Below, one piece after another: positions 6,556 through 47,253 of a DNA stretch of 64,000 nucleotides. Within the stretch, counting starts at the first letter, position 1, and the number at the start of each line of letters is the position of its first letter. The translations under genes and the position numbers were made by a program. Source of the stretch: Bacteroidota bacterium (lineage in GTDB: Bacteria; Bacteroidota; Bacteroidia; AKYH767-A; OLB10); the NCBI GenBank assembly GCA_031366005.1, contig JANLZB010000094.1, forward strand, positions 8,877-72,876, written 5' to 3'. The notes under the pieces were generated by a model, which saw only the letters and a program-made list of their open reading frames with translations, ran no database searches and was not told the origin of the DNA.

Positions 6556-6581
6556 GGTGCAAAGTTAGAATATAGTTGATA

Positions 6582-7905: not shown

Positions 7906-7913
7906 TATTTACA

Positions 7914-7976: not shown

Positions 7977-7980
7977 TTTT

Positions 7981-8649: not shown

Positions 8650-8781
8650 ACTATAATGATTTGATGATTTGTTAATTTGATGATTTGATAATAACCTTTG
8701 GAAGTTTTGATATCACAAAGATATAAGGTGAAGGTTTACCGTTATCTTATCAGATTAAATGGAAAAGTATTTAATGCACAG

Positions 8782-12919: not shown

Positions 12920-12926
12920 TCGATCT

Positions 12927-13718: not shown

Positions 13719-13778
13719 ATAATTTCGAGAGGTGTTTTTAAGCGCGTCAAAAGTAAACATTTTTTGAGATGAGAATTT

Positions 13779-14969
13779 TTAGTCTGTTAAGAGCAACTGA
13801 TGATAAAGATTTCGGGTATCATTAACCAATCGCTGATAATGAAAACGATCTTTAACAAATTTTTCTCCTGCTAATCCAAAATCATTCCGTAATTCAGAAC
13901 TCTCCACCATCTTTTTCAAATTTGCTGCAAACGATTCGATATCACCGGAAGGTGATAATAATGCAGAGTTAGCTGGATTTAGAATATCCTTTATTCCTCC
14001 TACATCGGTTGTAACAATTGGTTTCGCTCCTGCCTGTGCTTCAATTAAGCTTACCGGGGTTCCTTCGTTTAATGATGTGAGTGCAACTATATCCAGTCCT
14101 GCAATTGCCCATTCAATATTTTTTATCCAGGAAGTAAAAATTACGTTTGAATCCGATTTCAAATTATTGCTTTCACAATATTTTAATCCAAGTTCATTGC
14201 AATAATTTTCAATTCGCAATCTGTCTTCTCCATCACCAATAATTACAGCTTTTATTTTTTGTGAAGAAGAAGAAAGCACATTTTTAAACGCATTTAAAAA
14301 CAATTGATGATTTTTAACAGGAACCAGCCGTCCGATTATTCCAATCAAAATTTCAGCAGGAAGAATCTGATATTGCTCACGAAATGATTTCCTGTTTTCT
14401 TCACGATGATGATAAAAACGTTCGAGATCAAATCCAAGTGGTATCACTACAATTTTTTTTTCATCGCCCAACTTAAAATCATTTACTAATTCTCTTTTCT
14501 GTAATTCACTGATGGCAATTATGCGAGAGCTTTTTCTTGCTAAGTATTTTTCTATTGCTAAAAATATTTTTGTTTTTAAAGGACTAAAATAAGAGTGAAA
14601 AACATGGCCATGAAACGTATGAAGGATTACCGGAACCTTTGCATGAATTGCTGCCAGCCTGCCAACCGTTCCCGCTTTTGCTGCATGTGTATGAACTATG
14701 TCGGGCTTAAATTCTTTTATTATTTTTCTGATATGCTGGTAAGTTTTCCTGTCACTGCTGAAATTAATTGCTCTTCTCATTTCAGGAATGTACATTGGCT
14801 TGAGTCCCATTTGTTCAACGATAAACTCTGAACTTTCTTCCGTTTCATCCTTCATACCTGCTACCAATAATGTTTCAAATTCCGGTGCAAGGTATTTGCT
14901 CAGGTAAGCAGCATTATAGGTGGGCCCTCCTAAATTCAAACGGTTAATTATGCGAAGCACTTTTGGCAT
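13779..14969 (-). CDS. glycosyltransferase family 4 (GT-B, group 1)
   Basis: The C-terminal half carries GT1 motifs (EGTPVSLIEAQAGAKPIVTTDVGG). An A9 tract lies in the coding region at 14453-14461. Confidence 0.75.
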   Translation of the reverse strand: MPKVLRIINRLNLGGPTYNAAYLSKYLAPEFETLLVAGMKDETEESSEFIVEQMGLKPMYIPEMRRAINFSSDRKTYQHIRKIIKEFKPDIVHTHAAKAGTVGRLAAIHAKVPVILHTFHGHVFHSYFSPLKTKIFLAIEKYLARKSSRIIAISELQKRELVNDFKLGDEKKIVVIPLGFDLERFYHHREENRKSFREQYQILPAEILIGIIGRLVPVKNHQLFLNAFKNVLSSSSQKIKAVIIGDGEDRLRIENYCNELGLKYCESNNLKSDSNVIFTSWIKNIEWAIAGLDIVALTSLNEGTPVSLIEAQAGAKPIVTTDVGGIKDILNPANSALLSPSGDIESFAANLKKMVESSELRNDFGLAGEKFVKDRFHYQRLVNDTRNLYHQLLLTD

Positions 14970-24868: not shown

Positions 24869-25423
24869 ATGGCTGAGTACAGCGATGGTGAGTTATTATT
24901 ACAATTCAAAAATCCTGATGGAAATGCAAGGCACTATGCATTCAATCTGATTGTAAAAAAATACCAGCAGAAACTTTATTATCACATCCGCAAAATGGTG
25001 ATTGATCACGATGACACGGATGATATACTGCAAAATGTTTTTATCAAAGTATGGAATAGCCTGGATGGATTTCGCGAAGACAGTCAGCTTTACACCTGGA
25101 TTTATCGTATTGCAACCAATGAATGTTTAACTCATCTGAAAAATAAAAAGAAAAGATTTTTTCTGCCTATTGCAGATGTGGAGCACGAATTAAGTGATAT
25201 GCTCAGCAGCAGTGATAATTTCAGTGCAGATAAATTGCAACTTAAATTACAACAGGCAATTTTAACATTACCTGAAAAACAAAGACTTGTATTTAACATG
25301 CGTTATTATGATGAGATTAAATATGAAGACATGTCAGAGATTTTAGGAACTTCGGTAGGCGCATTAAAGGCATCTTATCATCATGCAGTACAGAAAATTG
25401 AGAAATTTATTGTGGGTGATTAA
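24869..25423 (+). CDS. RNA polymerase ECF-type sigma-70 factor
   Basis: Region 2 (DDTDDILQNVFIKVW) and region 4 (YYDEIKYEDMSEILGTSVGALKASY) are both present. Confidence 0.85.
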   Translation: MAEYSDGELLLQFKNPDGNARHYAFNLIVKKYQQKLYYHIRKMVIDHDDTDDILQNVFIKVWNSLDGFREDSQLYTWIYRIATNECLTHLKNKKKRFFLPIADVEHELSDMLSSSDNFSADKLQLKLQQAILTLPEKQRLVFNMRYYDEIKYEDMSEILGTSVGALKASYHHAVQKIEKFIVGD

Positions 25424-25515
25424 ACTTTATATGTTGTTTGCAATCTTAGATATAAGTAAAATGTGATGAGGTAATTAAATGATGATACAATAAAAATGAC
25501 AAATACCTATTGACA

Positions 25516-25965
25516 ATGAAAAATGATGATGAATTGAAAGATGCACCGGGATTGAGAGGGATGAAAAGAGAAAATCCATTTACAGTTCCTCATGGATATT
25601 TTGATTCTTTGAGTTCCAGGATTCAGGATCGGATAAATGCTCCTCAAGCAATAAGTATTTGGGAAAAATTATTGCTTCCTTTACAACGCCCTGCTTTTGC
25701 TTATGTCACCATAACAATTGCAATGTTAATTTGTGCAAGTGTTTATTTTACTCAAAAGAAAAATAACGTTGCAACACCACAAGTTGCAGAGGTAAATATT
25801 ACTGCAGATGATATATACAACTCAGGCATTATATATGAATATGATGAAAACACCTTGACAGAAGTTTTAGCTGCTAATACATCTACAAAACAATCATCAA
25901 CTGAATTAGAAGATTACCTGATTGATATAAACACTGATGAATCAGATTTAATAAATGAATTATAA
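25516..25965 (+). CDS. hypothetical single-pass membrane protein, candidate anti-sigma factor
   Basis: It lies immediately downstream of the ECF sigma gene, has one TM segment (AFAYVTITIAMLICASVYF), and carries no recognisable domain. Confidence 0.35.
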   Translation: MKNDDELKDAPGLRGMKRENPFTVPHGYFDSLSSRIQDRINAPQAISIWEKLLLPLQRPAFAYVTITIAMLICASVYFTQKKNNVATPQVAEVNITADDIYNSGIIYEYDENTLTEVLAANTSTKQSSTELEDYLIDINTDESDLINEL

Positions 25966-26013: not shown

Positions 26014-26502
26014 ATGAAAAAGATAATATTATTTCTCCCCCTCTTATTTTGCTTAACCTGGATTACACTTCCGGCACAACGTCCTGGTCCGCCACCACGC
26101 GACCGTATGATGGATAGGGGAGATCGCAAAGAGCAAATTGAATCCATGAAAATTGCTTTCATCACTAAGAAGTTAGATCTCACACCTGATGAAGCAAAAC
26201 GTTTCTGGCCTGTTTACAATCAATATACTGATGAGCTTCAGGGATTACGTAAAGATCGCAGAGAGCGTAACCGTGATGCGCGTGAAGATTTGGATAAACT
26301 TGGTGATAAAGAAGTTGAAAAATTAGTGGATGATGAAATTATTTTTCGTCAGCAGGAGATAGATGTGATAAAAAAATATCATGCTCAGTTTAAATCTGTG
26401 TTGCCAATTAAGAAAGTAGCAAGGCTATATCGTGCTGAAGAAGAATTTAAGCGCGAGTTGCTGGAAAGAATAAGAGACAGGAAAGAAGACAGGAGACCAT
26501 AA
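26014..26502 (+). CDS. hypothetical secreted charged helical protein (Spy/CpxP-like?)
   Basis: Signal peptide followed by a Lys/Arg/Glu-rich helical region. The assignment is context-based only. Confidence 0.35.
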   Translation: MKKIILFLPLLFCLTWITLPAQRPGPPPRDRMMDRGDRKEQIESMKIAFITKKLDLTPDEAKRFWPVYNQYTDELQGLRKDRRERNRDAREDLDKLGDKEVEKLVDDEIIFRQQEIDVIKKYHAQFKSVLPIKKVARLYRAEEEFKRELLERIRDRKEDRRP

Positions 26503-29590: not shown

Positions 29591-29706
29591 TTCTAAATGT
29601 AAGATTTTTCATTTTTTGCATTGCTTTTTAATCATTTTATGTACTGTTTTTGCAACCGTGCTATTAAATACATCGTAGAAAATAGCGCTGAAAAAAGCAA
29701 AGTATT

Positions 29707-31515
29707 ATGAAAAGAAAATTTATAATCGAATTAACATTGATCCTTTCAATGTTCTCAGGAATGGTTGTTATTGCTAAACCATTCAATTTAGGAAACGGAG
29801 ATCACGGTCGTGCGAAAATGGCTGAAAGATATTTCCTGTCAAAGAATTATGATAAGGCAACTCCTTTGTTTGCACAATTAGTAAGCAATCATCCAAATAA
29901 TTATAAGTATAATTATTACTATGGCGTGTGTCTGCTTATTACCAATAAGGATAAAGATAAAGCAGTAAAATATTTGGAATCAGCTGTGATGAAACCCAAA
30001 ACACCTGATGAAATTTTTTACTATCTCGGTAAGGCTTATCATTTAAACTACATGTTTGATGAGGGTATTCGTGCCATTACAGAGTTTAATAATATCATTA
30101 AGCCAAAGCAAAGAATGAAATGGAACTCTGAAGAACCGCTTGAGTGGTGTTATAATGCCAAACGCATTTTAGATCACAGTAAAGATTCCATTATTACTGA
30201 AAAAACGGAAGTGCCTGCAACAGATTTCTATAGCAAATATGTTTTTACCGGTAACCGTGGAAAAATGCTTGCCATGCCGGAAAAATATCTCACCAAAGAC
30301 ATGGATGAGCAAAATCCTACTGTATTTCTCTCCGCTAATAACAAGGTGATGTATTATTCTGCCTACAATAAAGAAACATCAAGCCGTGATATTTTCCGTG
30401 TAGATAAGCAGCAGGATGAAAGTTGGGGAACACCTTATGCATTGGATGCAAATGTAAATTCCAAGCAGGATGAAATGTATCCAACCTGTTCACCTGATGG
30501 AAAAGTTTTATTCTTCAGTTCGCTTGGTCATCTGAGCACCGGTGGATTTGATTTGTACAAATCTGTTTTCAGTATGGCTGATAAAAAATGGTCACCTGCA
30601 GAAAATATGGCATCACCATATTCTTCTCCGTTTGATGATTTTTGTTTCGTTCCATCTGTAGATGATAAGGTTGCCTATTTCACATCATCCCGCGAAAGCG
30701 ATTATAATAACCTGCTTGTTTGTAAAGTAGCATTTGATGGAAAACAAATACCGATTGAACTTAAAGGAGTATTTGCATGTATCGGTCAGCCTGATTTAAA
30801 AGGTGTGCATATTAATATCAATAGGACTCAAAACGATTCAGCCATTGCTGCACTTAATACTGATCCTAAAAGCGGAGCATACAATGTTATGTTACCAGGA
30901 CCTGGTACTTATACATTTAAAATAGAAGCTGAAGGATTTAAACCCGCACAACAAACAGTTACTTTTTCTGAGTTTGGCGAAACCTATTTTGTACAGGAAA
31001 TTTTCTTAAGCCGTAATGTGGATGGCACTGAAGATTTAGCAATAAACAATCTTAAAGCGGGCGATAATTGGGATACGGATATGACTGCTAAAGCAGACTC
31101 CAATTCTTTCAATACTATTACAATGGCTGACATTGGCGCAACAGGAAAGAATCTTTCTGATAAAGAACTTGAAGCACTTAACGATGCTATTAATAAAAGC
31201 AATACTCCTTCCAGCAACACATTAGGAATTGCAGCAACAAATGGTCTTGAATACCGTATTCAGATTGGTGCATTTAAAAAACAAACAGCGGATATAACCG
31301 AGAAAAACCTTTCGCACAGAACAAAAGAAGTGTTTTATGGACAGAAGGACACCGACTGGCACCGCTATTTTATCGGGCATATAGGATCAATGAAGCAGGC
31401 GCGTGAACTTGCAAAAATTGTTCGCAAAGCAGGATTTAAAGATGCTTATGTAGTTGCATTTAAGGAAGGAAATAATATTCCATTGCTGCAAGCAATTTCC
31501 GAGGAAGGGAATTAA
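29707..31515 (+). CDS. secreted TPR / PD40 (TolB-like β-propeller) repeat protein with a C-terminal SPOR domain
   Basis: Signal peptide, then PD40-like stretches (CSPDGKVLFFSS…GGFDLYKS). The C-terminal SPOR-like segment reads YRIQIGAFKK…ARELAKIVRKAGFKDAYVV. Confidence 0.5.
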   Translation: MKRKFIIELTLILSMFSGMVVIAKPFNLGNGDHGRAKMAERYFLSKNYDKATPLFAQLVSNHPNNYKYNYYYGVCLLITNKDKDKAVKYLESAVMKPKTPDEIFYYLGKAYHLNYMFDEGIRAITEFNNIIKPKQRMKWNSEEPLEWCYNAKRILDHSKDSIITEKTEVPATDFYSKYVFTGNRGKMLAMPEKYLTKDMDEQNPTVFLSANNKVMYYSAYNKETSSRDIFRVDKQQDESWGTPYALDANVNSKQDEMYPTCSPDGKVLFFSSLGHLSTGGFDLYKSVFSMADKKWSPAENMASPYSSPFDDFCFVPSVDDKVAYFTSSRESDYNNLLVCKVAFDGKQIPIELKGVFACIGQPDLKGVHININRTQNDSAIAALNTDPKSGAYNVMLPGPGTYTFKIEAEGFKPAQQTVTFSEFGETYFVQEIFLSRNVDGTEDLAINNLKAGDNWDTDMTAKADSNSFNTITMADIGATGKNLSDKELEALNDAINKSNTPSSNTLGIAATNGLEYRIQIGAFKKQTADITEKNLSHRTKEVFYGQKDTDWHRYFIGHIGSMKQARELAKIVRKAGFKDAYVVAFKEGNNIPLLQAISEEGN

Positions 31516-34407: not shown

Positions 34408-35106
34408 CTAAATCCTGCTTAATAAATTTTCTTTGTAACTGCTTCCGATTGGTAGCTTTTGTTTTTGCAACTCTACCTCGTTGCCTGCAATTGATTTGAT
34501 GGAATCAAGATTGATGATGTAAGATTTATGTATGCGTGCAAACTCATTACCGGGAAGATTTGCTTCAAAAAATTTCATGGTGTGTAAAGTAACAATCATG
34601 CGTTCGCGTGTAAAAATCTTTACGTAATCTTTCATTCCTTCTATGTATTCAATATCAACAAATTTTATTTTGATGAGTTTCTGATCACTTTTCACAAACA
34701 TGTAATCCACCCGTACTGTTGGTTTTTGAGCAGGAGCAACCGGTGCGGTATAACGTTCAATCACTTTATTCACGGCTTTCATAAAACGTTCCATGGAAAT
34801 GGGCTTTACTAAGTAATCCCTTACATCAAGTTCATAACCCTGCACTGCATAATCAGGATAAGCAGTAGTTATAATTACAGCAGGTGCTTTTCGTAATGAG
34901 CGCAAAAAATCTATACCTGAAATAACAGGCATTGATATATCGAGAAACATTAAGTCAACAGGTTCGGTGTGCAACACTTCGAATGCTTCCAGGGCATTTG
35001 AACATTTTTTTAATAGTGTTAATTCGTTAATGTTGTTGATGTAACGTTCGATCACATCTTGTGCCAGTGGCTCATCATCCACAATAATACAGTTGAATTT
35101 ATTCAT
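34408..35106 (-). CDS. LytTR-family two-component response regulator (REC + LytTR DNA-binding domain)
   Basis: N-terminal receiver domain and the C-terminal LytTR pattern (…FARIHKSYIINL…). Confidence 0.85.
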   Translation of the reverse strand: MNKFNCIIVDDEPLAQDVIERYINNINELTLLKKCSNALEAFEVLHTEPVDLMFLDISMPVISGIDFLRSLRKAPAVIITTAYPDYAVQGYELDVRDYLVKPISMERFMKAVNKVIERYTAPVAPAQKPTVRVDYMFVKSDQKLIKIKFVDIEYIEGMKDYVKIFTRERMIVTLHTMKFFEANLPGNEFARIHKSYIINLDSIKSIAGNEVELQKQKLPIGSSYKENLLSRI

Positions 35107-36167
35107 TTTAGTTCAAGGTCTAAGTGTACACTATATTCTTCTTCTCCGTCTTTTATTTTTAATTCTGACTTTCCGCGATACATCAGCTCTAATCTTCTTT
35201 TAATGTTTGTAAGCCCGATACCATTGCTGCTTGGCACCATGTTGCCATCGTCCATTAATCCCTTGCTGTTAACGGCATCAAACTGCATCCGGTTATTTTC
35301 AATGTTGATATTGATTTTTACCCAGCCATCATTAAAGCGTTTATCCAGTCCATGCTTAAAACCATTCTCAATAAAATCAATAAGTAATAATGGAGCAATC
35401 TCCTGTCCGTTAATTGTTCCGTTCACACTATAATCTATTTTATAATTTTCAGGATAACGGATGCGCTGAAGCTCAATATAGTTGCTGATAAAATTTAATT
35501 CTTTTGCCAGAGGCACTGTGGCTTCATTACTTTGATACAATACATAACGCATAATATCAGAAAGCTTTAATACAACTTCTGAAGATTTGTTTGAATTCTT
35601 TAATGTAAGAGAATAAAGATTATTTAAAGTATTAAAAAGAAAGTGAGGATTTACCTGTGATTTTAATGCGTTCAATTCAAGCTGTAATTTTTCTTTTTGA
35701 AGGCGAAGTAATTCTGTTTGTGTAATAAAAGCAATGAGTGTATATTTTAATGCGTAAGTAAGCAGCAACACTATAACGCCTTCAAGCACATCATACATCG
35801 GAGTGATACGATGAACAAAACGTTGCATCAATTGTTGCAGCCAAGTTTGGGGAAGCGACTTTAACAAAGTATAATTGCAGTAAGAATATAGCATCACCAA
35901 AGACACTGTAATCAGAAAATATGGAATGTATTTTTTTTTATTCAGCAGCGATGGAACCAATACATACAAATGAAAATAAACCATTGGCATTTGTGTTACA
36001 CAAACCACCAGGATATATAAAGCTGCATTCTTAAATCCCCATGGACCATATACATCATAGAAGCTGCGGAATAACCACACCGTCCAGAAAAATGCGTGCA
36101 GAATGATGCTTTTCATTCTTGCATTTGGCACCTTGCGTTCAAACTGTTGGATGAGATTCTCTATCAT
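35103..36167 (-). CDS. LytS/YehU-type sensor histidine kinase
   Basis: Multi-TM N-terminus, His_kinase motif VNPHFLFNTLN, and an HATPase domain. The start is uncertain: the ORF-track TTG is at 36176 and ATGs lie at 36167 and 36116. Confidence 0.75.
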   Translation of the reverse strand: MIENLIQQFERKVPNARMKSIILHAFFWTVWLFRSFYDVYGPWGFKNAALYILVVCVTQMPMVYFHLYVLVPSLLNKKKYIPYFLITVSLVMLYSYCNYTLLKSLPQTWLQQLMQRFVHRITPMYDVLEGVIVLLLTYALKYTLIAFITQTELLRLQKEKLQLELNALKSQVNPHFLFNTLNNLYSLTLKNSNKSSEVVLKLSDIMRYVLYQSNEATVPLAKELNFISNYIELQRIRYPENYKIDYSVNGTINGQEIAPLLLIDFIENGFKHGLDKRFNDGWVKININIENNRMQFDAVNSKGLMDDGNMVPSSNGIGLTNIKRRLELMYRGKSELKIKDGEEEYSVHLDLELK

Positions 36168-36372
36168 TGCTTTCAAATATACATCATTGTATTTCTGATA
36201 GTATTGCTTATCGTCAAAACGCTAATCATTAACGACTAAAATAATCAGGTATCCGACTTAGATTTTATATTCAGCATATATTCAGTTGGTCAGCAGTAAG
36301 CACATGTAAGTCTAAAAATTTTGTTAGCTTAAAAGTTCATTCATTTATTTGTAACATCTTAAAAATCACAAT

Positions 36373-38498: not shown

Positions 38499-41012
38499 GT
38501 TGTTGGTTTTTCTTTAGCCGGGTGTTCTGTAATCAAACGGGCACCCGGTTTTATCTCTAAACTAAATCTGTTAATTATTTTTTGTGTGTTCACTTTTCAG
38601 CTGCATGGTGAAGAACAAAAAGTAGTTTACAATGCTACCCGTATTTTTACTCCTCCCCGTATTGATGGACAGCTGAATGACAGTTGCTGGAAATCAGCCG
38701 CTGTTGCAACCAGTTTTATTACCTATTCACCTGAATTTGGAAAGCCTGCTTCTTTACGAACAGAGGCACGCCTGGTATATGATGATAATGCGATTTATGT
38801 TTCTGCTTATTGTTATGATGATCATCCCGAAGGAATACGTAATCAATTAGGTGAACGTGAAAGTTATCCCGATGCAGATGTGTTCGCAGTTGGACTGGAT
38901 ACTTATGATGATGACATCAATGGCTACCGTTTTGAGTTGAGCGCAGCAAATGTGCAGGGAGATGTGCGTTTATCACAGAGTAATATTGCTGATAAAAACT
39001 GGGATGCTGTCTGGCATAGCCGTGTGAGTATTGTTAAGGATGGATGGATCGTTGAAATAAAAATTCCATTCTCTGCTATTCGTTTTCCTGAGAAAGCAGA
39101 ACAACAATGGGGGCTTCAGTTTGCCCGTTCCATTAAGCGATTGAACGAATATGCAACATGGAGTCCGGTGAATCCTAAAATAAATGGTATCGTGAATCAA
39201 TGGGGTGTACTCACAGGGTTGGGTAATTTATCTCCTCCTGTTCGCCTTTCGTTTTCACCTTATGTATCCACCGGTATGCAGCATGATCCGGTTTCAACCA
39301 ATCCAACACTTTATAACACCAACTATTCACTGAACGGAGGGATGGATGTGAAGTATGGAATTAATGAAAGCTTTACATTGGATATGACTTTAATTCCTGA
39401 TTTCGGTCAGGTGCAATCGGATAATGTAGTTTTAAATCTTTCAGCTTTTGAAACAAAATTTGATGAGAAGCGAACTTTCTTTACTGAAGGAACCGAATTG
39501 TTTCACCAGGGTGATCCCAATTTCCGTGATGGAACTATTTTTTATTCGCGAAGAATAGGAGGGAGGCCTACTGGATATTTTTATGTTGATGATAGTTTGG
39601 ATGACGGAGAAGAGATTATAAAAAATCCTTCTGAATCTCAACTTTACAATGCAACAAAACTAACCGGCAGAACAAACAAAGGATTAGGTATTGGTTTCTT
39701 TAATGCCGTGACTGCGCCCATGTATGCTACGATTAGGAATACGGAGACCGGAGAGACAAGAAAAATTCAAACAGCTGTTTTAAACAATTATAATATTCTG
39801 GTTTTTGATCAGTCATTAAAAAATAATTCACATGTTAGTTTTACCAATACCAATGTGATGAGAGAAGGTGCATCAACAGATGGTAATGTGAGTGCAATCA
39901 ATTTTAATATTAAAGACAAATCAAATACTTATTCAGTTTCAGGATTTGCTAATTACAGTCAGCGTTATAACCAGTCGTTTGAAAAAAATCCAACAACGGG
40001 TTATTATTATACAGCTATCTTTTCAAAAATCAGCGGCAACTTTCAATTTGATTATTTTAATGCTGCAATAAGCAAGGATTATAATCAGCGTGATCTTGGA
40101 ATTCAAAATTCAAAAAATGAGTTCAGTAATTTCTTTGGAGTAAAGTATCTTCAAACAAAAGCCAAAGGTTACTTATTTAGCTGGGATGTGTATGCAACCG
40201 CTAATTATACCACTCGTCTTGAACCGATAACATACCAGGAGTTGCAGTTAAACTGGGGAGGTAATACACAACTGAAAAATTTTTGGTACGCAGGTGTATA
40301 TTTTAGTTCAAAACCAACTTACTATTATGATTATTACGATCCACGGGTTGAAGGCGCTAAATACACTCATGGTGGATATTGGTTTGGCGGTATGTACATT
40401 AACACTGATGACAGAAAACGATTAGCATTAAATGTTAACCTTGGATATGGTGAATCATCTTATCCTGATGATCCTTATCGTGAAATAAAATTGAATCCTG
40501 TGTTTCGGGTGAATGATCATCTGCGGCTCTCTTATGATTTATTTATGAGTGAAGATAAAGGATCGTTTGGTTATGTGGATGTAGATTCAACAGGACAAAT
40601 AATTTATGGCTTGCGTTTGCTGCACACTGTCACCAATACATTCACGGCTCAATATGCTTTCACTTCTAAAATGAATGTGAGTTTGCGTGCACGCTATTAC
40701 TGGAGCAAAGTAAATTTTGCACGTTTCTATAACCTGAATGAGGATGGCACTGTTGATTACAGCAACTTCACAGGCAACTATGATGAAAACTTTAATGCCT
40801 TCAATCTTGATATGATTTACAACTGGGAGTTTGCACCGGGAAGCAGGTTAAGCATTGCATGGAAAAATAATATTGAACAGGATGATAATTTCGGTCATGA
40901 TAATTATTTCAGCAATTTTCATAAAACATTTAACACTGCACAGTCCAATGGGCTTTCTGCCAAGCTGATTTATTATTTAGATTACCAGTATTTGAAGAGA
41001 AAGAACGGATGA
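38499..41012 (+). CDS. CBM9-like / DUF5916-type outer-membrane-associated putative hydrolase
   Basis: The N-terminal motif IDGQLNDSCWKSAA…YDDNAIYVSAYCYD resembles CBM9-like domain proteins of Bacteroidota. No ATG start is found after the upstream hairpin. A rare start is expected within 38500-38570. Confidence 0.5.
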   Translation, partial: VVGFSLAGCSVIKRAPGFISKLNLLIIFCVFTFQLHGEEQKVVYNATRIFTPPRIDGQLNDSCWKSAAVATSFITYSPEFGKPASLRTEARLVYDDNAIYVSAYCYDDHPEGIRNQLGERESYPDADVFAVGLDTYDDDINGYRFELSAANVQGDVRLSQSNIADKNWDAVWHSRVSIVKDGWIVEIKIPFSAIRFPEKAEQQWGLQFARSIKRLNEYATWSPVNPKINGIVNQWGVLTGLGNLSPPVRLSFSPYVSTGMQHDPVSTNPTLYNTNYSLNGGMDVKYGINESFTLDMTLIPDFGQVQSDNVVLNLSAFETKFDEKRTFFTEGTELFHQGDPNFRDGTIFYSRRIGGRPTGYFYVDDSLDDGEEIIKNPSESQLYNATKLTGRTNKGLGIGFFNAVTAPMYATIRNTETGETRKIQTAVLNNYNILVFDQSLKNNSHVSFTNTNVMREGASTDGNVSAINFNIKDKSNTYSVSGFANYSQRYNQSFEKNPTTGYYYTAIFSKISGNFQFDYFNAAISKDYNQRDLGIQNSKNEFSNFFGVKYLQTKAKGYLFSWDVYATANYTTRLEPITYQELQLNWGGNTQLKNFWYAGVYFSSKPTYYYDYYDPRVEGAKYTHGGYWFGGMYINTDDRKRLALNVNLGYGESSYPDDPYREIKLNPVFRVNDHLRLSYDLFMSEDKGSFGYVDVDSTGQIIYGLRLLHTVTNTFTAQYAFTSKMNVSLRARYYWSKVNFARFYNLNEDGTVDYSNFTGNYDENFNAFNLDMIYNWEFAPGSRLSIAWKNNIEQDDNFGHDNYFSNFHKTFNTAQSNGLSAKLIYYLDYQYLKRKNG

Positions 41013-41040
41013 TTACCCATTAATAAAAAAACCGTCCTGC

Positions 41041-41066
41041 AAATTAATGCAGGACGGAAAATCAAA
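41041..41066. terminator. intrinsic terminator ccgtcctgca-aattaa-tgcaggacgg between convergent genes, A/T-run flanked
   Basis: Perfect 10-bp stem. A7 upstream gives a U-run on the minus-strand transcript. Confidence 0.8.
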
Positions 41067-41082
41067 ATGAAAAAGAACTTCT

Positions 41083-42060
41083 TTAAGCTGTTTCGCTTGC
41101 TTTTACAATTGCGGGCTCATAAGCAGGCACAATGAAACCTGATGGCTCCAGAAAATAAGTGCGGGTTACGGTTTGATTATGCTTAATTTCAATCAAACCG
41201 GTGTTAAGGTTTTGTGTGCCTGAGGTAAGCGTAAAGCTGTAAATATCTGCCATAGCTTTATTTTGTGTTTTATTATATTTAATATCCATTGAAGCCAGCC
41301 CGCCCATATCAGTGGTAGCCTGGTTTTGAGTGTTATTCTGTGTAAGAGTTACGTTCGGTACCGGTTGCATCAGGTCATCCAGGATTAAGACCCTGAATTT
41401 GCCATGGCGGGTAGCTTTTGCTGTAAGCTGCCTGCGCTGGGTGTATTGATTAAAAAAATCTATATTACCATTGGTTTTATATCCGATTGCGGCACTGTCA
41501 AGCTCGTTAGTGCAATAGCTCATCCCTTGTTCTATCAATGCTTTTATCTTCTGGTTGCGCTGGCGTCTTGCTTCCAGTTGATTTTTTGGAGTTAACAAAA
41601 CTCTGCTGTAATCATCAATAGCAGATTGCCACTGCGTAAGGGTCTCGCTAGTGATATTCCAATCTGCCATGTTGGCTACAAATGGCTGAATGAGCTTTAG
41701 CCATGATTGTGCAACCGATACAATATTGGTGTCCTGAATTTTGATAATTTTACTTTGCGACATTTTCAGTTTTGCTGCCATGTCAGCATTGCCTGCATTC
41801 ACAAAATAACCGCGGGCCGCCTTAATCACTGAATAACTTAACTGGTCAAGTGCCCTACGGAACTTTTCCTTCTCGGCCCCGCTGCCAATGATGCTGGAGG
41901 GCTGCGAACCAAGTTCTAATAAACTGTTAATAATGACTCCAATCTGATCAATGCTTATAGCAAAGGCTTTTATCAGGTTGGTGATTACGGGGTTTGATGT
42001 TGCAAAACCATATACGGATTGAAACATAAACATTCTGATTTGATCTTTTTTGTTAAACAT
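41083..42060 (-). CDS. hypothetical protein (325 aa), no recognisable domain; second gene of a two-gene module
   Basis: Long ORF with good coding appearance, a helical N-terminal half and a Thr/Asn/Gln-rich C-terminal half. It is followed by a strong terminator. Confidence 0.5.
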   Translation of the reverse strand: MFNKKDQIRMFMFQSVYGFATSNPVITNLIKAFAISIDQIGVIINSLLELGSQPSSIIGSGAEKEKFRRALDQLSYSVIKAARGYFVNAGNADMAAKLKMSQSKIIKIQDTNIVSVAQSWLKLIQPFVANMADWNITSETLTQWQSAIDDYSRVLLTPKNQLEARRQRNQKIKALIEQGMSYCTNELDSAAIGYKTNGNIDFFNQYTQRRQLTAKATRHGKFRVLILDDLMQPVPNVTLTQNNTQNQATTDMGGLASMDIKYNKTQNKAMADIYSFTLTSGTQNLNTGLIEIKHNQTVTRTYFLEPSGFIVPAYEPAIVKASETA

Positions 42061-42240
42061 ATTTTTTAAGATTTAAATTTAATTTTTAGTTTATTTATGT
42101 ATGTATTTGTTCTTTCTACGCAATTTTATTTGCCGGGTTACATTTATTTTTTTAATTGCTTCTTTATTTCTTGTTGTTGCATTTACAGGGTGTGATACGA
42201 TGCGTTTTTAAATAAGTTTCCGTAACCCAAAATTTTTTTT

Positions 42241-43032
42241 CTATTCAAATAATTTATTTTCAATCGGCAGTGTAATTTGGTTATTGTTTGCCTTTACAAG
42301 TCCTGCTTCTGTGACAGCTCCCAGGTAGGAACCGAAAGCACGGTAGTATTGCATATAGGGATGTTGCTTATCTGTCAGCATATCCTTTTTTTTCGGGGTA
42401 CCCCCCATCAATGCGGCTTTTGATTGCAGATAACTGATCAGGCGGTGGCGATGCAATTCCTTTCGCTTGTTGAGCAGCAATTTACGCAACTGAAAATGAT
42501 TGCATGCCTCTATAGAGAGCCATGCAAAAGTTTTAAAGAGCTGCCTTACATAATGCTTTGAATAATGGCTGTTCGCATAGTATGATCCCATGGAAGGAAT
42601 ACGGTCGAGTCGCAGGGCTATGTCGCGGAAATCTTCCATCAATTGCATTTTGGTATATGGCATGTTATGCTCCACAGTCCAATTATTTTCCACCGGCTCC
42701 TGTTTACCGCCCGATGCATCATACTGGCGCAGAAAGGTCATAAACAGGTACAAACGGGTTTCACCCGGCATTGCGCGTTTCAGTTCCTGCATGGAAGGAA
42801 GGCGGTTAAGCCCCTTATACAGATCAATACATTTTTGCTGTTTGCGCTCTTCTAATATATCTGTATAGAACAGGTTTTGTGCATAAAGCAGTTTATTGAT
42901 TTTGTCTGCTGATATATTATATCGCACTGCAAGATGTGTAAGGCGGGCACCTGCTTTTATCTCATGTATTATCTGCTCCTCCATAACCTTTTCATCCAAA
43001 GGCTGAGGAAGCGTTATTATTTCATTTTCCAT
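42241..43032 (-). CDS. hypothetical DNA-binding protein: N-terminal HTH plus three homing-endonuclease-associated (HNH_repeat-like) repeats
   Basis: HTH-like stretch ARLTHLAVRYNISADKINKLL. Three repeats share the pattern (L/I)P(S)…Y…(F)GS(W/Y)…A…AGL, e.g. LDRIPSMGSYYANS…FKTFAWLSIEA and YYRAFGSYLGAVTEAGL. Confidence 0.5.
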   Translation of the reverse strand: MENEIITLPQPLDEKVMEEQIIHEIKAGARLTHLAVRYNISADKINKLLYAQNLFYTDILEERKQQKCIDLYKGLNRLPSMQELKRAMPGETRLYLFMTFLRQYDASGGKQEPVENNWTVEHNMPYTKMQLMEDFRDIALRLDRIPSMGSYYANSHYSKHYVRQLFKTFAWLSIEACNHFQLRKLLLNKRKELHRHRLISYLQSKAALMGGTPKKKDMLTDKQHPYMQYYRAFGSYLGAVTEAGLVKANNNQITLPIENKLFE

Positions 43033-43510
43033 AACTGCATAACATAATATACCCTGTGATACGAAAGGATTGGTGATAGGTTTCAGGTTAGGAAAAAAAA
43101 TTTTGAGGAGGTTGTATTAAGGTAGTATTAGTAAAATTCAGCTTTCAGCTATGTGTGACCTTTCACGCCCTTGTTGGTGTTATTTCCACCAACAAGTTTA
43201 CTGTTTTTATTTAATAAGTGTATAAATTGTTTCTTGCAGGTGAAAGGAAACACGTGCAAGGGCGAGAAAAGGGTGTACAGGGTGTTTATGATGTTGATGA
43301 TTATCGTTTGCTGGAGTATTTATAGATTGGATGCAATGTTTGGAAAAGTTAGTGAATCGTTGGAGATCAGGTGCTCCGAATTTCAGAGTCCCGCGGTAGG
43401 GGCGGAGACTCTGAAAGTACTGAAGATTGTGAATAACTTTTGAGACTTTGTTTTTAAATGATATTGCAATTTGATGATTATAAGTATCTTTGTTTGATTC
43501 TAAATTAATA

Positions 43511-45220
43511 ATGATAACCAAGGAACAAATAAAAAATACAGGAGCAACCTTTACGCCTAAAGGTCTTGCCGATTTCTTGGCTACGAGGTTAATCAAATAT
43601 ATTTCTGCAAAGAATGTCAAGGCACTTGACCCTGCTTGTGGAGAAGGTGAATTGCTAATATCTATTGGGGAAAAACTTTCGGAATCAGGAATTGATTTTA
43701 CTTTAACTGGTTACGATGAGAATGATCACTATCTGAGTTTAGCAAAAGAGAGAATGTTGCAATTCGGTTCAGGAAAGAACAATCTTGTACAGGGGAATTT
43801 TTTAAAGGCCATTGATTTGACGGACAATCAAGGAACTTTTGATTTCTTCTCTGCAGAAAAATCTAATATTAATAAGGCTTTTGATGTTGTAATTGCGAAT
43901 CCGCCTTATGTAAGAACGCAAATTTTGGGAACAGAACAAGCGCAGGAACTCGCAAAAAAATTTAATCTGAAAGGTAGAGTCGATTTGTATTATCCATTTT
44001 TAATGGCAATGACTGAAAGCCTTAAAGATGATGGCATTTTAGGTGTGATTACTTCCAATCGTTACCTTTCAACGAAAAGTGGTGAAAGTGTAAGAAAATA
44101 TCTTTCGGAAAATTTTGAAATAATTGAACTGATTGATTTAGGGGATACCAAATTATTTGATGCAGCAGTATTACCTGCTATTTTTATTGGCAGAAAGAAA
44201 AAGCAACGATCTCCTGCTCCTGCAAATTTTATTAAAGTTTACGAAGAGTTAAACGGATATAAGGGCGACTTAATTCCTATGGAATCCATATATGAGATGT
44301 TAGATAGTGAAGAGACGGGGTATTTTATAGTAAATGAAAAACGTTACAAAAAATCCGCAGGGTTTTTAAAGTATGAAATCGGTTCTGGAACTTGTTGGGA
44401 AATGTTGTCAGACAAAGAATCGAATTGGGTTTCAATAATTGATAAGTCTTCCACTAACCGAGTAGGGGATTTCTTTAAGGTAAAAGTAGGTATTAAATCT
44501 ACGGCTGATAAAGTATTCATAAGCGATAAGTGGGAAGAACTTAATGGAACCAAACCTGAAGAAGAGTTGTTGAAAGAGTTGATTTCCCAAGAAAATATTG
44601 AGCCGTGGAATGCTACGGATAATTTTAATTTAAAAGTGTTATATCCGCACATTTCAGTTAATGGAGGAAAAGAAACTGTTGATATTGAAAAGTATCCTAA
44701 AGCGAAAAAATATTTTTTACAACACGAAGAAAAGCTAAGGTCGAGAAAATATCTTATTGAGACAGGGCGGCAGTGGTTTGAATTGTGGGTTCCTCACCAT
44801 CCCGACCAATGGAAAAATCCGAAATTGGTTTTCCCGGATATAAGTTTAAGTCCGAGATTTTATTTTGATAAAGGGGGGAGAATTGTTAATGGTAATTGTT
44901 ATTGGATCGTTGCCCAAGATAAAAAGGACATTGATAAATTATTGTTGATTCAAGGTGTCGCTAATTCAAAATTGATGACTAAGTATCACGATTTAGTCTT
45001 TAATAATAAACTATACTCTGGAAGAAGAAGGTACTTTACGCAGTACGTTGAAAAATATCCACTCCCTGATTTTAATTCGCCTGTCGCAAAGGAAATTATC
45101 TCTTTAGTAAAAAAATTGAACGAAACTCAAGATACAGCAGTTATTAGCAAACTTGAAAATAAACTTGAAATAAGAGTCGCAGAGGCATTTGGTGTCGAAC
45201 CGGTTTTTACTTTGGATTAA
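43511..45220 (+). CDS. N6-adenine DNA methyltransferase (gamma class, Eco57I/TaqI-like) with a C-terminal target recognition domain
   Basis: Motif I LDPACGEGELL precedes motif IV VIANPPYV. The ORF-track start at 43490 is a TTG, and the first ATG is at 43511. Confidence 0.8.
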   Translation: MITKEQIKNTGATFTPKGLADFLATRLIKYISAKNVKALDPACGEGELLISIGEKLSESGIDFTLTGYDENDHYLSLAKERMLQFGSGKNNLVQGNFLKAIDLTDNQGTFDFFSAEKSNINKAFDVVIANPPYVRTQILGTEQAQELAKKFNLKGRVDLYYPFLMAMTESLKDDGILGVITSNRYLSTKSGESVRKYLSENFEIIELIDLGDTKLFDAAVLPAIFIGRKKKQRSPAPANFIKVYEELNGYKGDLIPMESIYEMLDSEETGYFIVNEKRYKKSAGFLKYEIGSGTCWEMLSDKESNWVSIIDKSSTNRVGDFFKVKVGIKSTADKVFISDKWEELNGTKPEEELLKELISQENIEPWNATDNFNLKVLYPHISVNGGKETVDIEKYPKAKKYFLQHEEKLRSRKYLIETGRQWFELWVPHHPDQWKNPKLVFPDISLSPRFYFDKGGRIVNGNCYWIVAQDKKDIDKLLLIQGVANSKLMTKYHDLVFNNKLYSGRRRYFTQYVEKYPLPDFNSPVAKEIISLVKKLNETQDTAVISKLENKLEIRVAEAFGVEPVFTLD

Positions 45221-46325
45221 ACACACACTTTCCGTAATGCTTTTCAAAAAACGCCATTGGTATTGCCCTTTGGCATTTATAACTTTCGGCACTCACATAA
45301 GAAAATAATTCTCCTAATTTTTCACCTGGTGTAAGTATTATTCCTTCAATTATTTCAGTTTTGGGATTGGTTAATGCTATTAAATAGCGCACGTCAAAAG
45401 TCGTCAAAGAGGAGTCTTTAACTATAACCTCTTCTCTTTCAGGTGAAAATTTACCCAAGTCAACCGTTGGACTGTCTTGAACCTTTACTTCCAATAACTG
45501 ATTCCGTATATCAGGAAAAGCTCCATATAATAGATCTGATTCTTTCACCTGATAACCTAATAGTTCAAGCGTTTTCTTCTCCAAAGCTTGACCTCTGTTT
45601 TTTGTCGCTGCCGCATCCAATTTAAAACCGATTAATTTTTCCGCAACCATTTTCTTGAGTAAAGCAATCGAAAATAAGTTTTTGATGTCCGGTTCTTCTA
45701 CCATACCGGACTTGGGCGGTAAGTAATCGTGACGTATATGATAAGAAAGTTTTTTAGAATCAGGAAAAGACAAGATTTTGTCTGCGCTTTCATAAATGTC
45801 TTTTCGAACCTTTCTCGAAATCAATAATTGATGTTTAATTGTTGGTTGCCCAAAATTTCCAAAATGTTGTACGATATATTCTGGTGTAAGAATCACTATT
45901 GAAGCGATAGTGTTTTTTGAAGTGTCAACTCTTACAAATACAAATCTAACATCTGTACATTTAAGGCTTTCACCTGATTCATATTTGATAAGCAAAGTTT
46001 CCGCTGCAGGAGCTCTGTTCCAAACTTGCAAATTATAGGATGTGCCGCTGGTTACAATATAGGTGTCTATAAATTCTCTTGTAATTTTAGGTACACCCTT
46101 TCCTTTGGGAGGAACAATTTCAAACTGATCAATTTCTGCTGATGACGGTAACTGATGCTTTTCTAATGTTGACGCTATTAATTTTCTGATGTTTGATCCG
46201 TCTGTGCGTGTTTTTCCTGTTATGGTAAATGGTTTACCAACAAGTTCAGAAAAATGTTTTGTCAGCACTTTAGGGTCAGTCAGCATACTTACAGAACGTG
46301 GTGGTATTTTAAATTCTTTGTTCAT
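45207..46325 (-). CDS. putative Type II restriction endonuclease (uncharacterised family)
   Basis: It is convergent with the methyltransferase and overlaps its 3' end by 14 bp. It is translationally coupled to the upstream controller HTH gene. A possible PD…EVK motif is FPDIRNQLLEVK. Confidence 0.45.
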   Translation of the reverse strand: MNKEFKIPPRSVSMLTDPKVLTKHFSELVGKPFTITGKTRTDGSNIRKLIASTLEKHQLPSSAEIDQFEIVPPKGKGVPKITREFIDTYIVTSGTSYNLQVWNRAPAAETLLIKYESGESLKCTDVRFVFVRVDTSKNTIASIVILTPEYIVQHFGNFGQPTIKHQLLISRKVRKDIYESADKILSFPDSKKLSYHIRHDYLPPKSGMVEEPDIKNLFSIALLKKMVAEKLIGFKLDAAATKNRGQALEKKTLELLGYQVKESDLLYGAFPDIRNQLLEVKVQDSPTVDLGKFSPEREEVIVKDSSLTTFDVRYLIALTNPKTEIIEGIILTPGEKLGELFSYVSAESYKCQRAIPMAFFEKHYGKCVFNPK

Positions 46326-46549
46326 AACAAGTCGGCTGGTTTTACCTTAAGTGCTTTTGCAATTTTTTTTAGGTTTAGGACAGAAATATTCCTTTCACCT
46401 CTTTCAACGGATCCGATATATGTTCTGTCTAAATCACAAGCAAAGGCAAGCTTTTCCTGAGATAGGTCGGCTTCGGTTCGAAGGTCGCGAATCCGATCGC
46501 CAATTTGTTGCAAAAAGAGCCTTTCGTCTTTTGAATAAGATGTTGACAT
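46322..46549 (-). CDS. XRE-family HTH protein, candidate R-M controller (C) protein
   Basis: 75-aa protein with HTH LSQEKLAFACDLDRTYIGSVERG. Its stop overlaps the endonuclease start in an ATGA arrangement. Confidence 0.65.
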   Translation of the reverse strand: MSTSYSKDERLFLQQIGDRIRDLRTEADLSQEKLAFACDLDRTYIGSVERGERNISVLNLKKIAKALKVKPADLL

Positions 46550-47253
46550 GAATGAAAAAATGAGGGGACGAAGGTTTGGAAAAGATGTAAATAAGACTAC
46601 GGACTATAAGTAGCATTTTTGCTTCTATTCGAAAAAATCCAAACCCTACCACTACGTCCCGGCAAAAAATAAGTTTCGTACAACAAGACCACACAAGTTA
46701 CAGCCGCAATCGCAGCAGTTGACATCGTAGTTCGGTTGAGCGTTGTAACCGTGTGAGTAGCAGCAGCCTATTAAATTTTTTGTTAAATAATGTTCCATAA
46801 CTGAATGCGTTTTCCACAGAGCCGGATGCGTTTGACAACTGGTTATCTGCCATACCTGCCCAAGCAAATACGTTTTACATCAAAGCGACTGCCAATGCTA
46901 CCGATGCCGGTGCGTTTTCCAACGAGGGGAATGCGTTTGACAAAGTGTTTTGTTCTATAGCTTACAGTTCTTTTTCAAAAGACATGGAAGCTAATGCAAA
47001 TGATTTCGATCCATGTGCAATAACAAATCATCAGCTTGCTCTTATCAGGGATGCAAACGTTCTTGATTTATCGGGTAGTGATGTTGTTAATACAGCGGAA
47101 GCTTATTATGCAAAGGGGAAAACAATAGTTGACCTACAGGGCGCTCTTGCTCATCATCCGTATATAATTATAATTTCCACTGGCACGGCTATTGACTTAC
47201 GATGGTTTCACCCATTTTTGTACTTCCTTAATGACACATTGACACAGAACATT

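Follow-up and report, generated by a model that had tools for sequence, protein, structure and literature searches.

Direct-repeat operators of the iteron and LytTR type have a period of about 21-22 bp, corresponding to two helical turns, and the consensus for the promoters of Bacillus subtilis sigma-W is TGAAAC-N16-CGTA. The repeats collected in the Pfam family HNH_repeat (PF18780) are, as we take from the name and description of that family, associated with homing endonucleases. Bacteroidota possess on average 22.5 ECF sigma factors per genome (PMC7826278), and RNA-guided transcription by dCas12f with sigma-E is directed to susCD or two-component loci and needs no promoter motif (PMC13472631). 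Here we compare with such systems two neighbouring genes, encoding proteins of 263 and 325 amino acids, from a stretch of DNA of 64,000 nucleotides (the window). We find that the 325-aa protein belongs, by profile comparison, to a large and unstudied Bacteroidota protein family, and that the elements before both genes have an architecture that, judged from their sequence, is typical of ECF sigma factor promoters. With about even confidence we read the region as two independent but co-regulated accessory genes and not as a dedicated two-component system.

A sequence-only reading had described two co-directional genes with a strong terminator behind the second one. Both parts hold, since the two ORFs lie on the minus strand exactly where they had been placed and an intrinsic hairpin follows:

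42241-43032, minus strand: gene of the 263-aa protein (ORF, PF18780 match, dN/dS 0.20 against L001)
41083-42060, minus strand: gene of the 325-aa protein (ORF, dN/dS 0.13 against L001)
41032-41057, minus strand: intrinsic terminator closing the unit, CCGTCCTGC-loop-GCAGGACGG then T7 (10-bp stem, 7 G-C pairs, T7 tail)

The reference L001 is the one relative outside the window lineage that has retained the gene pair. Protein identity between the two is 67-71% (71% for the 263-aa protein, the start of which is conserved) and synonymous sites are near saturation (dS 0.9-2.0); the dN/dS values show purifying selection on both genes. The 180-bp gap between them contains its own promoter-like elements, and no terminator was found inside it. 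We therefore regard the two genes as co-regulated neighbours rather than a tight operon, possibly also co-transcribed. Their GC content (41-43%, compared to 37.9 +/- 3.0% for the other genes) is in the native range, which makes composition uninformative about a foreign origin. Rfam gave nothing meaningful over the window region, with a single sub-threshold RsaOG match on the terminator.

The following promoter-like elements and accompanying tracts were located upstream of the two genes:

43092-43105, minus strand: A/T tract of 14 nt, immediately ahead of the -35 in the element of the 263-aa gene (inverted repeat I6)
43057-43085, minus strand: ECF-sigma-type promoter-like element of the 263-aa gene, TGAAACC-N14-TCGTATCA (16 nt from AAC to CGT; ends 24 nt before the ATG)
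42228-42241, minus strand: partner A/T tract just upstream of the P1 -35 (exact reverse complement in I6, 100% complementary)
42193-42221, minus strand: P1, promoter-like element of the 325-aa gene, GGAAAC-N16-CGTATCA (132 nt before the ATG)
42114-42142, minus strand: P2, promoter-like element of the 325-aa gene, TGTAACC-N15-GCGTAGAA (53 nt before the ATG)

The extended -10 of P1, TCGTATCACA, is identical to that in the element of the 263-aa gene, and this promoter element is the longest direct repeat within 40950-43550. The strict pattern GAAAC-N16-CGTAT occurs exactly twice in 128 kb (the window on both strands), once before each gene. The A/T tract at 42228-42241 begins right after the stop codon of the 263-aa gene, with one base of overlap. 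All three elements are conserved in L001 despite a dS of 0.9 or higher. P2 sits where the homologs have their single promoter-like element; of 12 independent upstream regions in the window's subfamily, 10 contain AAC-N15-17-CGT at 53-83 nt ahead of the ATG, where the background rate is 0.057 per 120 nt. Additionally, the family member at L010, which is 26% identical and stems from the two sequencing runs that also yielded the window protein, shares the CGTATCA -10. As an ECF promoter we counted a -35 AAC and a -10 CGT with a 16-17 nt spacer, suitable placement and conservation, and the window elements show all of these features. A scan for the sigma-70 consensus gave fewer sites than shuffled sequence. 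The only ECF sigma gene of the window (24869-25423) was considered as the cognate sigma factor and rejected, as no matching motif lies upstream of it. We also rejected transcription by dCas12f with sigma-E as an account of the long upstream regions, because it is targeted to susCD or two-component loci and requires no motif, whereas a conserved -35 and -10 are present here (PMC13472631). That the two genes belong together, as had been proposed, is supported by the copies of one promoter before both and by their joint retention in L001 at the identity given above; the other family members examined are solitary.

The 263-aa protein matches HNH_repeat with an E value of 1.1e-15, scoring 58.1 bits where the cut-off is 26. 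It starts with an acidic N-terminal region of ~60 aa, a possible yet unconfirmed HTH, which is followed by a basic HNH_repeat region (pI 9.75). HMMER found two significant repeat stretches in the protein, the better one covering profile positions 3-53 of 54:

42697-42843, minus strand: degenerate copy 1, aa ~64-112, RLPS motif only (read from the sequence; alone not significant)
42493-42654, minus strand: HNH_repeat copy 2, aa ~127-180, RIPS...FKTFAWLSIEA (second significant stretch; coordinates inferred from the sequence)
42298-42450, minus strand: HNH_repeat copy 3, aa 195-245, FGSY..A..EAGL (top-scoring, best HMMER stretch)

Three repeats of the type FGS(W/Y)..A...AGL had been announced. 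Only copy 3 carries this motif, as FGSY..A..EAGL; copy 2 deviates from it and copy 1 is degenerate. The HTH assigned to the same protein was not confirmed: HTH_45 gives the only match, which stays below threshold (E 0.14, 12.6 bits where 25.5 are required), residues 1-75 searched alone match no family, and there is no PDB sequence match at E<=10. In line with the earlier reading, a nuclease domain is absent, with no HNH, GIY-YIG, LAGLIDADG or other nuclease family matched in Pfam at E<=1 and no match of any kind in NCBIfam. A nuclease remnant was not found in the upstream ORF 43207-43620 either, and the 458 bp upstream of the gene hold no ORF with any Pfam match. The repeat region is also matched by PHROG 22655, a family of unknown function, at E 1.3e-10. 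Neither the 263-aa nor the 325-aa protein has a transmembrane segment or a signal peptide.

The 325-aa protein had been described as an orphan without recognisable motif, and neither statement survives profile comparison. Word-indexed homolog searches return only 7, 2 and 8 matches, while the profile search finds a large family with 2,626 cluster representatives at E<=1e-3, of which the exhaustive profile search places 699 at E<=1e-10; the orphan appearance is thus an artefact of the sensitivity of word-indexed searching. The protein consists of two domains:

41416-42060, minus strand: N-terminal helical domain, aa 1-215, basic, pI 9.65 (AF2 pLDDT 93.8, helices 4-209)
41086-41415, minus strand: C-terminal CarboxypepD_reg/transthyretin-like beta-sandwich, aa ~216-325 (family Pfam matches, PDB profile, Foldseek)

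The AF2 model was built with 56 sequences and replaced a poor run with 7 sequences (pLDDT 59.6). Pfam searched with the window protein alone gives no match. PF13620, however, is matched by 24 of the 56 family members, and the A3 family profile finds PDB chains of a cellulosomal X-module, carboxypeptidase D and the SusC NTE at E 1e-6 to 1e-4. Foldseek compares the C-terminal domain to 5aq0, 9hfj and 2b59 with a probability of 1.0, and the TM-scores to 5aq0 and 9hfj are 0.7-0.76 when normalised to these small targets. By family profile and fold together, we class this domain as CarboxypepD_reg-like (PF13620/PF13715). Elsewhere in the family the C-terminal position is taken by CarboxypepD_reg, Big_1, SdrD_B, PEGA or S-layer-type Ig domains. 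The N-domain, which is basic in 95% of the members, is absent from Pfam, NCBIfam, PHROGs and PADLOC when the 56 members are searched. Across these 56 sequences the sole (nearly) invariant residues are G59, D188, R210 and G254, and we see no conserved Cys, His or acidic clusters or other catalytic-looking residues.

Family loci were collected by a scan of genome contigs, which gave one locus, and by scans of metagenomes, where alignment A1 gave none and alignment A5 gave 54. The family genes usually stand alone, as cassettes that end in a terminator and are arranged as [21-bp tandem array]-[promoter]-[gene]-[terminator], in varied contexts of the flexible genome; hairpin and T-run terminators follow all ten homologs that we examined. 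Among the loci examined, the pair is adjacent only in the window, together with the same-strain contigs L004/L005, and in L001. The gene is solitary in L002, L003, L006-L010, L012 and L013 by hmmsearch and in L014 by neighbour list and Pfam scan, and within L001-L013 no HNH_repeat gene was found outside L001 and L004/L005. The two genes are accordingly not adjacent in most carrier genomes, as a conserved two-gene module would be.

In the window the pair has as its immediate neighbour a type II R-M system that includes a C protein, and is flanked further out by genes for an M13 peptidase and a CBM9/DUF5916 protein on one side and Lon on the other, so that the R-M neighbour and the housekeeping flanks reported earlier are both real:

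43490-46549, methyltransferase on the plus strand, restriction endonuclease and C-protein on the minus strand: type II R-M system, context only and outside the unit (Pfam/PADLOC)
43490-45220, plus strand: methyltransferase, Eco57I/N6_Mtase/TaqI_C (PADLOC MTase_II, E 7e-200)
45207-46325, minus strand: REase_II restriction endonuclease (E 8.5e-18)
46322-46549, minus strand: HTH_3 C-protein (profile match)

This setting had led to the proposal of a new defence or abortive-infection pair; on such a reading, the HNH_repeat protein would be a sensor or binder of phage DNA and the 325-aa protein the effector. We consider it unlikely. Besides the R-M system of the window, there is a CBASS system next to the family member at L008 and a Septu-like pair (AAA_15/AbiJ_NTD3 plus HNH) next to that at L007; the genes are accessory and patchily distributed, and the HNH_repeat modules match the phage family PHROG 22655. 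Family-wide, this makes defence-linked contexts 3 out of ~12, so that the idea of a defence island holds only weakly for the family, the remaining contexts being a T6SS locus, giant T9SS adhesins and ordinary genes, metabolic ones among them. In PADLOC-DB v2.0.0 neither protein matches any family at E<=1, and the 56 family members give only three single, weak and unrelated matches at E>=1e-3. Searching 50,697 phage records by tblastn returned no match for the 263-aa or the 325-aa protein, and IMG/VR scans with the family alignments A1 and A5 returned no relative of the latter; the PHROG match of the repeat region is the sole link to phage genes. The pair is found only in the window lineage and L001, and on the short L001 contig no R-M system is seen. 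As to an effector role, catalytic residues are not conserved in the family, and NTPase and nuclease domains and membrane segments are absent. PADLOC, phage, conservation and catalytic-residue checks thus lend the defence proposal no positive support, and nothing found here besides the R-M adjacency ties the pair to phage defence. This adjacency probably reflects a common location in a variable region with no functional link. A regulatory pair, the other possibility raised before, would suit a basic, nuclease-less HNH_repeat protein better.

A second alternative is that the 325-aa protein is exported without a signal peptide, as T6SS cargo, T6SS accessory or surface factor, and that the HNH_repeat gene is an unrelated passenger. 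The C-terminal domains of the family are typical extracellular modules although a signal peptide is missing, and three members directly precede giant T9SS or GEVED proteins. Moreover, on 12 contigs P0029 (L014-L019) is next to a Bacteroidota T6SS locus that includes TssE/gp25, TssF, Tlde1-like and Pesticin genes. Yet this is one distinct context of ~12; only P0029 adjoins a T6SS, with a terminator between it and the tss genes, and the family does not behave as a T6SS-iii component. An immunity-like partner gene is not evident, most members are far from secretion genes, and the surroundings of the window pair contain no T6SS genes. Because one promoter is common to both genes, the HNH_repeat gene is also hardly a random passenger, and we judge the export reading improbable.

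The 21-bp tandem arrays bring in a third alternative. They lie ~200 nt upstream of the gene in 43 of 46 loci of a distant subfamily, and the window's subfamily has them in 8 of 11 loci, with a median of 5 and a maximum of 14 copies. The sequence of the unit varies between loci, even among four loci of one assembly (L025, L026, L027 and L046). At the window and L001 the array is absent and the HNH_repeat gene occupies its position. Rfam gave no match over the arrays, and a literature search on 21-bp arrays in Bacteroidota found nothing relevant. The family protein could then be a sequence-specific DNA-binding autoregulator of its own array, iteron- or centromere-like, and in the window lineage the array would have been lost and the HNH_repeat protein would have taken over control in trans. 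The locus-specific units are what one expects if each array has a cognate binder, and the basic N-domain agrees with this. On the other hand, basic pI values are common in AT-rich Bacteroidota proteomes, the AF2 model is a long-helix bundle that matches no HTH or winged helix, and arrays may diverge by concerted evolution without a specific binder. L008 has neither an array nor an HNH_repeat gene, and the idea is purely correlative. We hold it to be doubtful.

That the 263-aa ORF is merely a decaying homing endonuclease remnant, stripped of its nuclease and next to the 325-aa gene by chance, would agree with the presumed homing-endonuclease association of HNH_repeat, with the lack of a nuclease domain and with adjacency in two lineages only, but is very unlikely given the selection test (dN/dS 0.20 over the full length, start conserved, 71% identity in L001), the gene's own conserved promoter-like element duplicating that of its neighbour, and the upstream 458 bp without a Pfam-matching ORF.

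In our preferred reading of two co-regulated accessory genes, activation of a particular ECF-type sigma factor would let RNA polymerase start at the TGAAAC-N16-CGTATCACA elements. One product would be the basic, nuclease-less 263-aa HNH_repeat protein, most likely a DNA-binding regulator or architectural protein and not a cutter. The other would be the 325-aa protein, probably non-enzymatic, whose basic all-helical domain and transthyretin-like beta-sandwich most likely bind a ligand of polyanionic or carbohydrate-like nature. The array that most relatives have is missing from the window lineage, and an HNH_repeat gene with the same promoter stands in its place. One may speculate further that the family is an undescribed class of self-contained array-promoter-gene-terminator cassettes across Bacteroidota-type genomes, often multicopy with differing units. 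The basic helical domain would be a new DNA-array-binding module, which either controls the cassette that encodes it or organises the DNA there; the variable beta-sandwich would link this to a ligand or partner; and in the window lineage the cis array would have given way to a nuclease-less HNH_repeat protein acting in trans. We offer this wider picture as a long shot.

The analysis removes from the window the tempting label of a new defence pair, which is unsupported, and puts testable statements in its place: a common ECF-type promoter, a nuclease-less HNH_repeat protein and a member of a large family. The family is the more useful outcome. Its N-domain is in no domain library and has a confident structure model, and its cis-architecture of locus-specific 21-bp arrays, dedicated promoter and terminator is striking. 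It offers a well-delimited subject for a domain-family entry of its own and for simple experimental work, and it may open a way into one of the Bacteroidota ECF regulons, many of which are uncharacterised.

Compared to known anti-phage systems in PADLOC-DB v2.0.0, the likeness is one of neighbourhood only (type II R-M at the window, CBASS at L008, Septu-like at L007), with no significant model match for either protein or the 56 members. The 263-aa protein resembles HNH_repeat (PF18780) proteins in scoring above the curated cut-off and in its basic repeat region. It differs from them in having no HNH, GIY-YIG or other nuclease and no match in the phage records, and its gene is chromosomal, under purifying selection and equipped with an ECF-type promoter-like element in common with its neighbour. 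With iteron and LytTR operators most family members share a strict 21-bp period in an upstream array. However, the family arrays reach 14 copies, lie ~200 nt from the ATG and are chromosomal, several differing arrays occur on the contigs of one assembly, the cassette has no Rep, Par or LytTR gene, and the window itself has no array. The C-terminal ~110 aa of the 325-aa protein have the same fold as CarboxypepD_reg/transthyretin-like domains (PF13620/PF13715), here joined to a basic helical domain of ~215 aa without a match in any library; unlike carboxypeptidase D, SusC and cellulosomal proteins, the protein has no signal peptide, TonB box, peptidase or dockerin. Finally, although the window host appears to be a member of the Bacteroidota and the sigma-W consensus used for comparison is from Bacillus subtilis, TGAAAC-N16-CGTAT in the window is an exact match to the consensus architecture of these ECF promoters.

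The co-directional gene pair, the strong terminator behind it, the neighbouring restriction-modification (R-M) system and the housekeeping flanks described in the sequence-only reading are all indeed present. The R-M system is a complete type II system on the high-coordinate side of the pair, and ordinary genes form the outer flanks, with M13 peptidase and CBM9/DUF5916 on one side and Lon on the other:

41032-41057, intrinsic terminator after the 325-aa gene (10-bp stem, 7 G-C pairs, T7 tail)
41083-42060, minus strand, ORF of the 325-aa protein
42114-42142, P2, second promoter-like element of the 325-aa gene, TGTAACC-N15-GCGTAGAA, 53 nt before the start
42241-43032, minus strand, ORF of the 263-aa HNH_repeat protein
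43490-45220, R-M methyltransferase, Eco57I/N6_Mtase/TaqI_C (PADLOC MTase_II, E 7e-200)
45207-46325, R-M endonuclease (REase_II, E 8.5e-18)
46322-46549, R-M controller protein (HTH_3)

The terminator closes the pair, and the 180-bp spacer separating the two genes holds no terminator-like site. The pair has a GC content of 41-43% vs 37.9 +/- 3.0% in the remaining window genes, so that composition is little informative on a foreign origin. Two adjoining hairpins (43153-43196, plus strand) lie within the 458 non-coding bp that separate the 263-aa gene from the methyltransferase gene; one is terminator-like on the plus strand, yet no plus-strand gene ends there. The long non-coding stretch from the R-M controller gene to lon contains two GTCAAACGCAT...GGAAAACGCA copies, ~105 bp apart (46800-46945, minus-strand reading), and the Lon ORF probably begins further downstream than its listed GTG start (46945).

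One conserved ECF-type promoter-like element stands in front of both genes, a copy apiece, and both genes are under constraint. With both strands of the window considered, its strict form GAAAC-N16-CGTAT has exactly two occurrences, at 43059-43084 and 42195-42220, one before each gene. An unbiased repeat search ranked the 30-nt element first by length among the direct repeats of the region; it also found a 14-nt A/T tract, in inverted copies, directly upstream of both -35 boxes. Between the window and L001, the one relative keeping the pair, the elements are conserved despite near-saturated synonymous sites (dS 0.9 and 2.0), while dN/dS of the coding regions is 0.20 (263-aa gene) and 0.13 (325-aa gene). 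Of 12 independent upstream regions from the window's subfamily, 10 have the looser AAC-N15-17-CGT at a distance of 53-83 nt from the start codon (0.057 expected per 120 nt; binomial probability ~1e-13), and L010, the locus of a further family member, has the same CGTATCA -10. A distant subfamily from metagenomes has the element in 4 of 52 loci; it is not characteristic there and is therefore a clade feature. Judged by sequence, the elements are ECF-type promoters, with putative sigma dependence. Bacteroidetes genomes encode on average 22.5 ECF sigma factors (PMC7826278).

The sole ECF sigma gene of the window (Sigma70_r2 + r4_2; 24869-25423, plus strand) has no GAAAC-N16-CGTAT element upstream; the two small ORFs after it (25510-25965 and 26014-26502), both without Pfam match, could be anti-sigma candidates. 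Another ECF-type element, TGCAACC-N15-TCGTAGAA (29651-29680, plus strand), ends 26 nt before ORF 29707-31515, which encodes a 602-aa TPR/PD40/CarboxypepD_reg/SPOR envelope protein. Its -10 CGTAGAA is common to P2, and the gene may share a regulon with the pair. Finally, CGAAACTTATTT-N10-CGTAGTG (46650-46678, minus strand) precedes the R-M controller gene by ~100 nt. Over 11 nt, its -35 half GAAACTTATTT reads exactly as in P1, the first element of the 325-aa gene (42193-42221), which could be chance or could mean that the C-protein/endonuclease operon has the same promoter type.

The 325-aa protein, previously taken for an orphan with no recognisable motif, turned out to have many relatives and an assignable C-terminus. 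While a word-indexed search gave seven relatives only, an exhaustive profile search gave 2,626 cluster representatives at E<=1e-3 (699 at E<=1e-10, 44 at E<=1e-30), mostly of 300-330 aa and aligning from residue 1. An AlphaFold2 model built on a 56-sequence alignment (pLDDT 93.8) has a long-helix bundle at residues 4-209, then a beta-sandwich at residues 221-303. PF13620 is matched by 24 of the 56 family members, the family profile matches PDB chains (E 1e-6), and Foldseek pairs the sandwich with carboxypeptidase D, the SusC N-terminal extension and cellulosomal X-modules at probability 1.0. By profile and model the predicted sandwich is a CarboxypepD_reg/transthyretin-like domain, and thus a known fold. 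Other family members have this C-terminus swapped or multiplied (Big_1, SdrD_B, PEGA, tandem CarboxypepD_reg copies). The N-domain and the family cassette architecture are undescribed within the libraries and literature searched. P0027 (L010/L011), a 26%-identical member, comes from the two sequencing runs that also contain the window protein (SRR20217206, SRR20217217) and is for this reason probably a second paralog in the window's organism; it is also present on a 98-kb NCBI contig and has two CGTATCA-type promoter elements.

The two-gene module exists only in the window lineage. L001 keeps the pair (67% identity for the 325-aa, 71% for the 263-aa protein) with a divergent gene on one side and an Ldh_2 gene on the other, and its 4.2-kb contig carries no R-M system. 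An HMM search of six-frame translations (L001-L013) found no HNH_repeat gene beyond the window, its same-strain contigs L004/L005 and L001. In all other contexts examined the family gene is solitary, and its own hairpin and T-run terminator closes it in 10 of 10 homologs examined; the 325-aa gene belongs to a large family of monocistronic cassettes. The family contexts are:

L001, L002, L010: ordinary genes
L003: IS110
L006, L009, L013: giant T9SS or GEVED proteins
L007: Septu-like AAA_15/AbiJ_NTD3 + HNH pair (11470-14232)
L008: CBASS
L012: Fic
L014-L019: Bacteroidota T6SS locus with gp25/TssE, TssF, Tlde1-like and Pesticin genes

Such heterogeneous contexts therefore indicate an accessory gene of the flexible genome. 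The family member of L008 has as neighbours (1-8722) a complete CBASS-like operon (SMODS, ThiF/E1-like, JAB, DUF6602) and an HTH_31/SocA_Panacea gene. About a quarter of the contexts adjoin defence systems, which is suggestive, yet far from specific. A new defence or abortive-infection pair, as originally put forward, appears unlikely to us: neither the two proteins nor the 56 family members have a PADLOC match, phage records (both proteins) and viral-contig scans gave no phage homologs, effector-like features are absent and the pairing is not conserved.

There is a slim chance that the 325-aa protein is exported or T6SS-related. Its C-terminal domain types are typically extracellular, yet it has no signal peptide, and the T6SS and adhesin neighbours of family members, which would fit, make up a minority of contexts. 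Moreover, a terminator separates the family member P0029 from the tss genes of the T6SS locus that it borders in L014-L019 (e.g. L014 369-9355). This locus also encodes a metallopeptidase-like protein, and carries, in L014/L016/L018, a variable two-gene effector insert that L015/L017 lack.

Most loci carry, upstream of the family gene, a tandem array of strict 21-bp period. Lags of 21/42/63 bp give the strongest self-similarity in 8 of 11 loci of the window's subfamily and in 43 of 46 of the distant one. Examples, to which 40+ further loci in the range L021-L073 add, are:

L002, 2545-2780
L003, 2680-2800
L009, ~3195-3260
L014, ~185-235
L035, 1-135
L048, 4485-4745
L051, 1461-1720

The arrays (median 5 copies, maximum 14) stop ~200 nt short of the ATG. 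The unit, such as GATGCTTGCAGTGTCCGGGTC (x7), AAATGAAAATTTCGGGTCTAT (x12) or ATCTCGGAAGAAAGAATATCA (x11), varies by locus, even across L025, L026, L027 and L046, four loci whose contigs come from one assembly. Gene callers at times extend the ORF into the array and create spurious N-termini of 7-residue period; in clusters P0060 and P0103 the artefact spans ~100 aa, e.g. NAIGLLPNAIGLSL. No Rfam family matches the arrays, and our literature search found nothing on them. The array is absent from the window, L001 and L008; in the window and L001, the HNH_repeat gene and a promoter copy take its position. The family protein might accordingly be an array-binding autoregulator, with the HNH_repeat protein standing in for a lost array. 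Locus-specific arrays and the basic domain fit this reading, which is purely correlative and which we hold to be improbable. LytTR regulators bind 9-bp direct repeats at 12 bp spacing, i.e. with a 21-bp period. A LytTR-type response regulator (34408-35106, minus strand) is encoded in the window, followed by an overlapping 357-aa ORF (35103-36176, minus strand) that by eye looks like its sensor kinase. The LytTR period may be relevant to the family arrays, though the window itself has none.

The 263-aa protein matches Pfam HNH_repeat (PF18780, E 1.1e-15). Two of the three proposed repeats are significant stretches; the third, N-proximal copy is discernible by its RLPS motif only. The expected N-terminal HTH found no support: HTH_45 is the only hit, with an E of 0.14, and the N-terminal segment searched by itself matches nothing. 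The proposed lack of a nuclease domain was confirmed with Pfam and NCBIfam. With a pI of 9.75 the repeat region is strongly basic, and the protein has no membrane segment. It matches a PHROG of unannotated function; tblastn against 50,697 phage records gave 0 homologs, a PDB sequence search found no solved structural relative, and the one other cluster found is P0009 (71% identity). A homing endonuclease in decay, lying next to an unrelated gene, is very improbable, given purifying selection and the duplicated promoter.

We prefer to read the pair as co-regulated accessory genes, a mechanism that as a whole we consider about as probable as its opposite. An ECF-type sigma factor would co-induce both genes. 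The basic, nuclease-less HNH_repeat protein would bind DNA in a regulatory or architectural role, the 325-aa protein would act non-enzymatically via its basic helical domain and ligand-binding beta-sandwich, and the R-M adjacency would be incidental. The cis-regulatory anatomy is much firmer than this whole, the biochemical roles of both proteins much weaker. As a defence candidate the pair is less compelling than first held; the family-level features merit follow-up.

The 263-aa protein belongs to the HNH_repeat family, but the lack of a nuclease domain means that it is not a homing endonuclease. The window elements have the canonical architecture of ECF-sigma promoters, with a -35 AAC, a 16-17 nt spacer and a -10 CGT. 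The B. subtilis sigma-W consensus is TGAAAC-N16-CGTA, and the window copies are equal to it.
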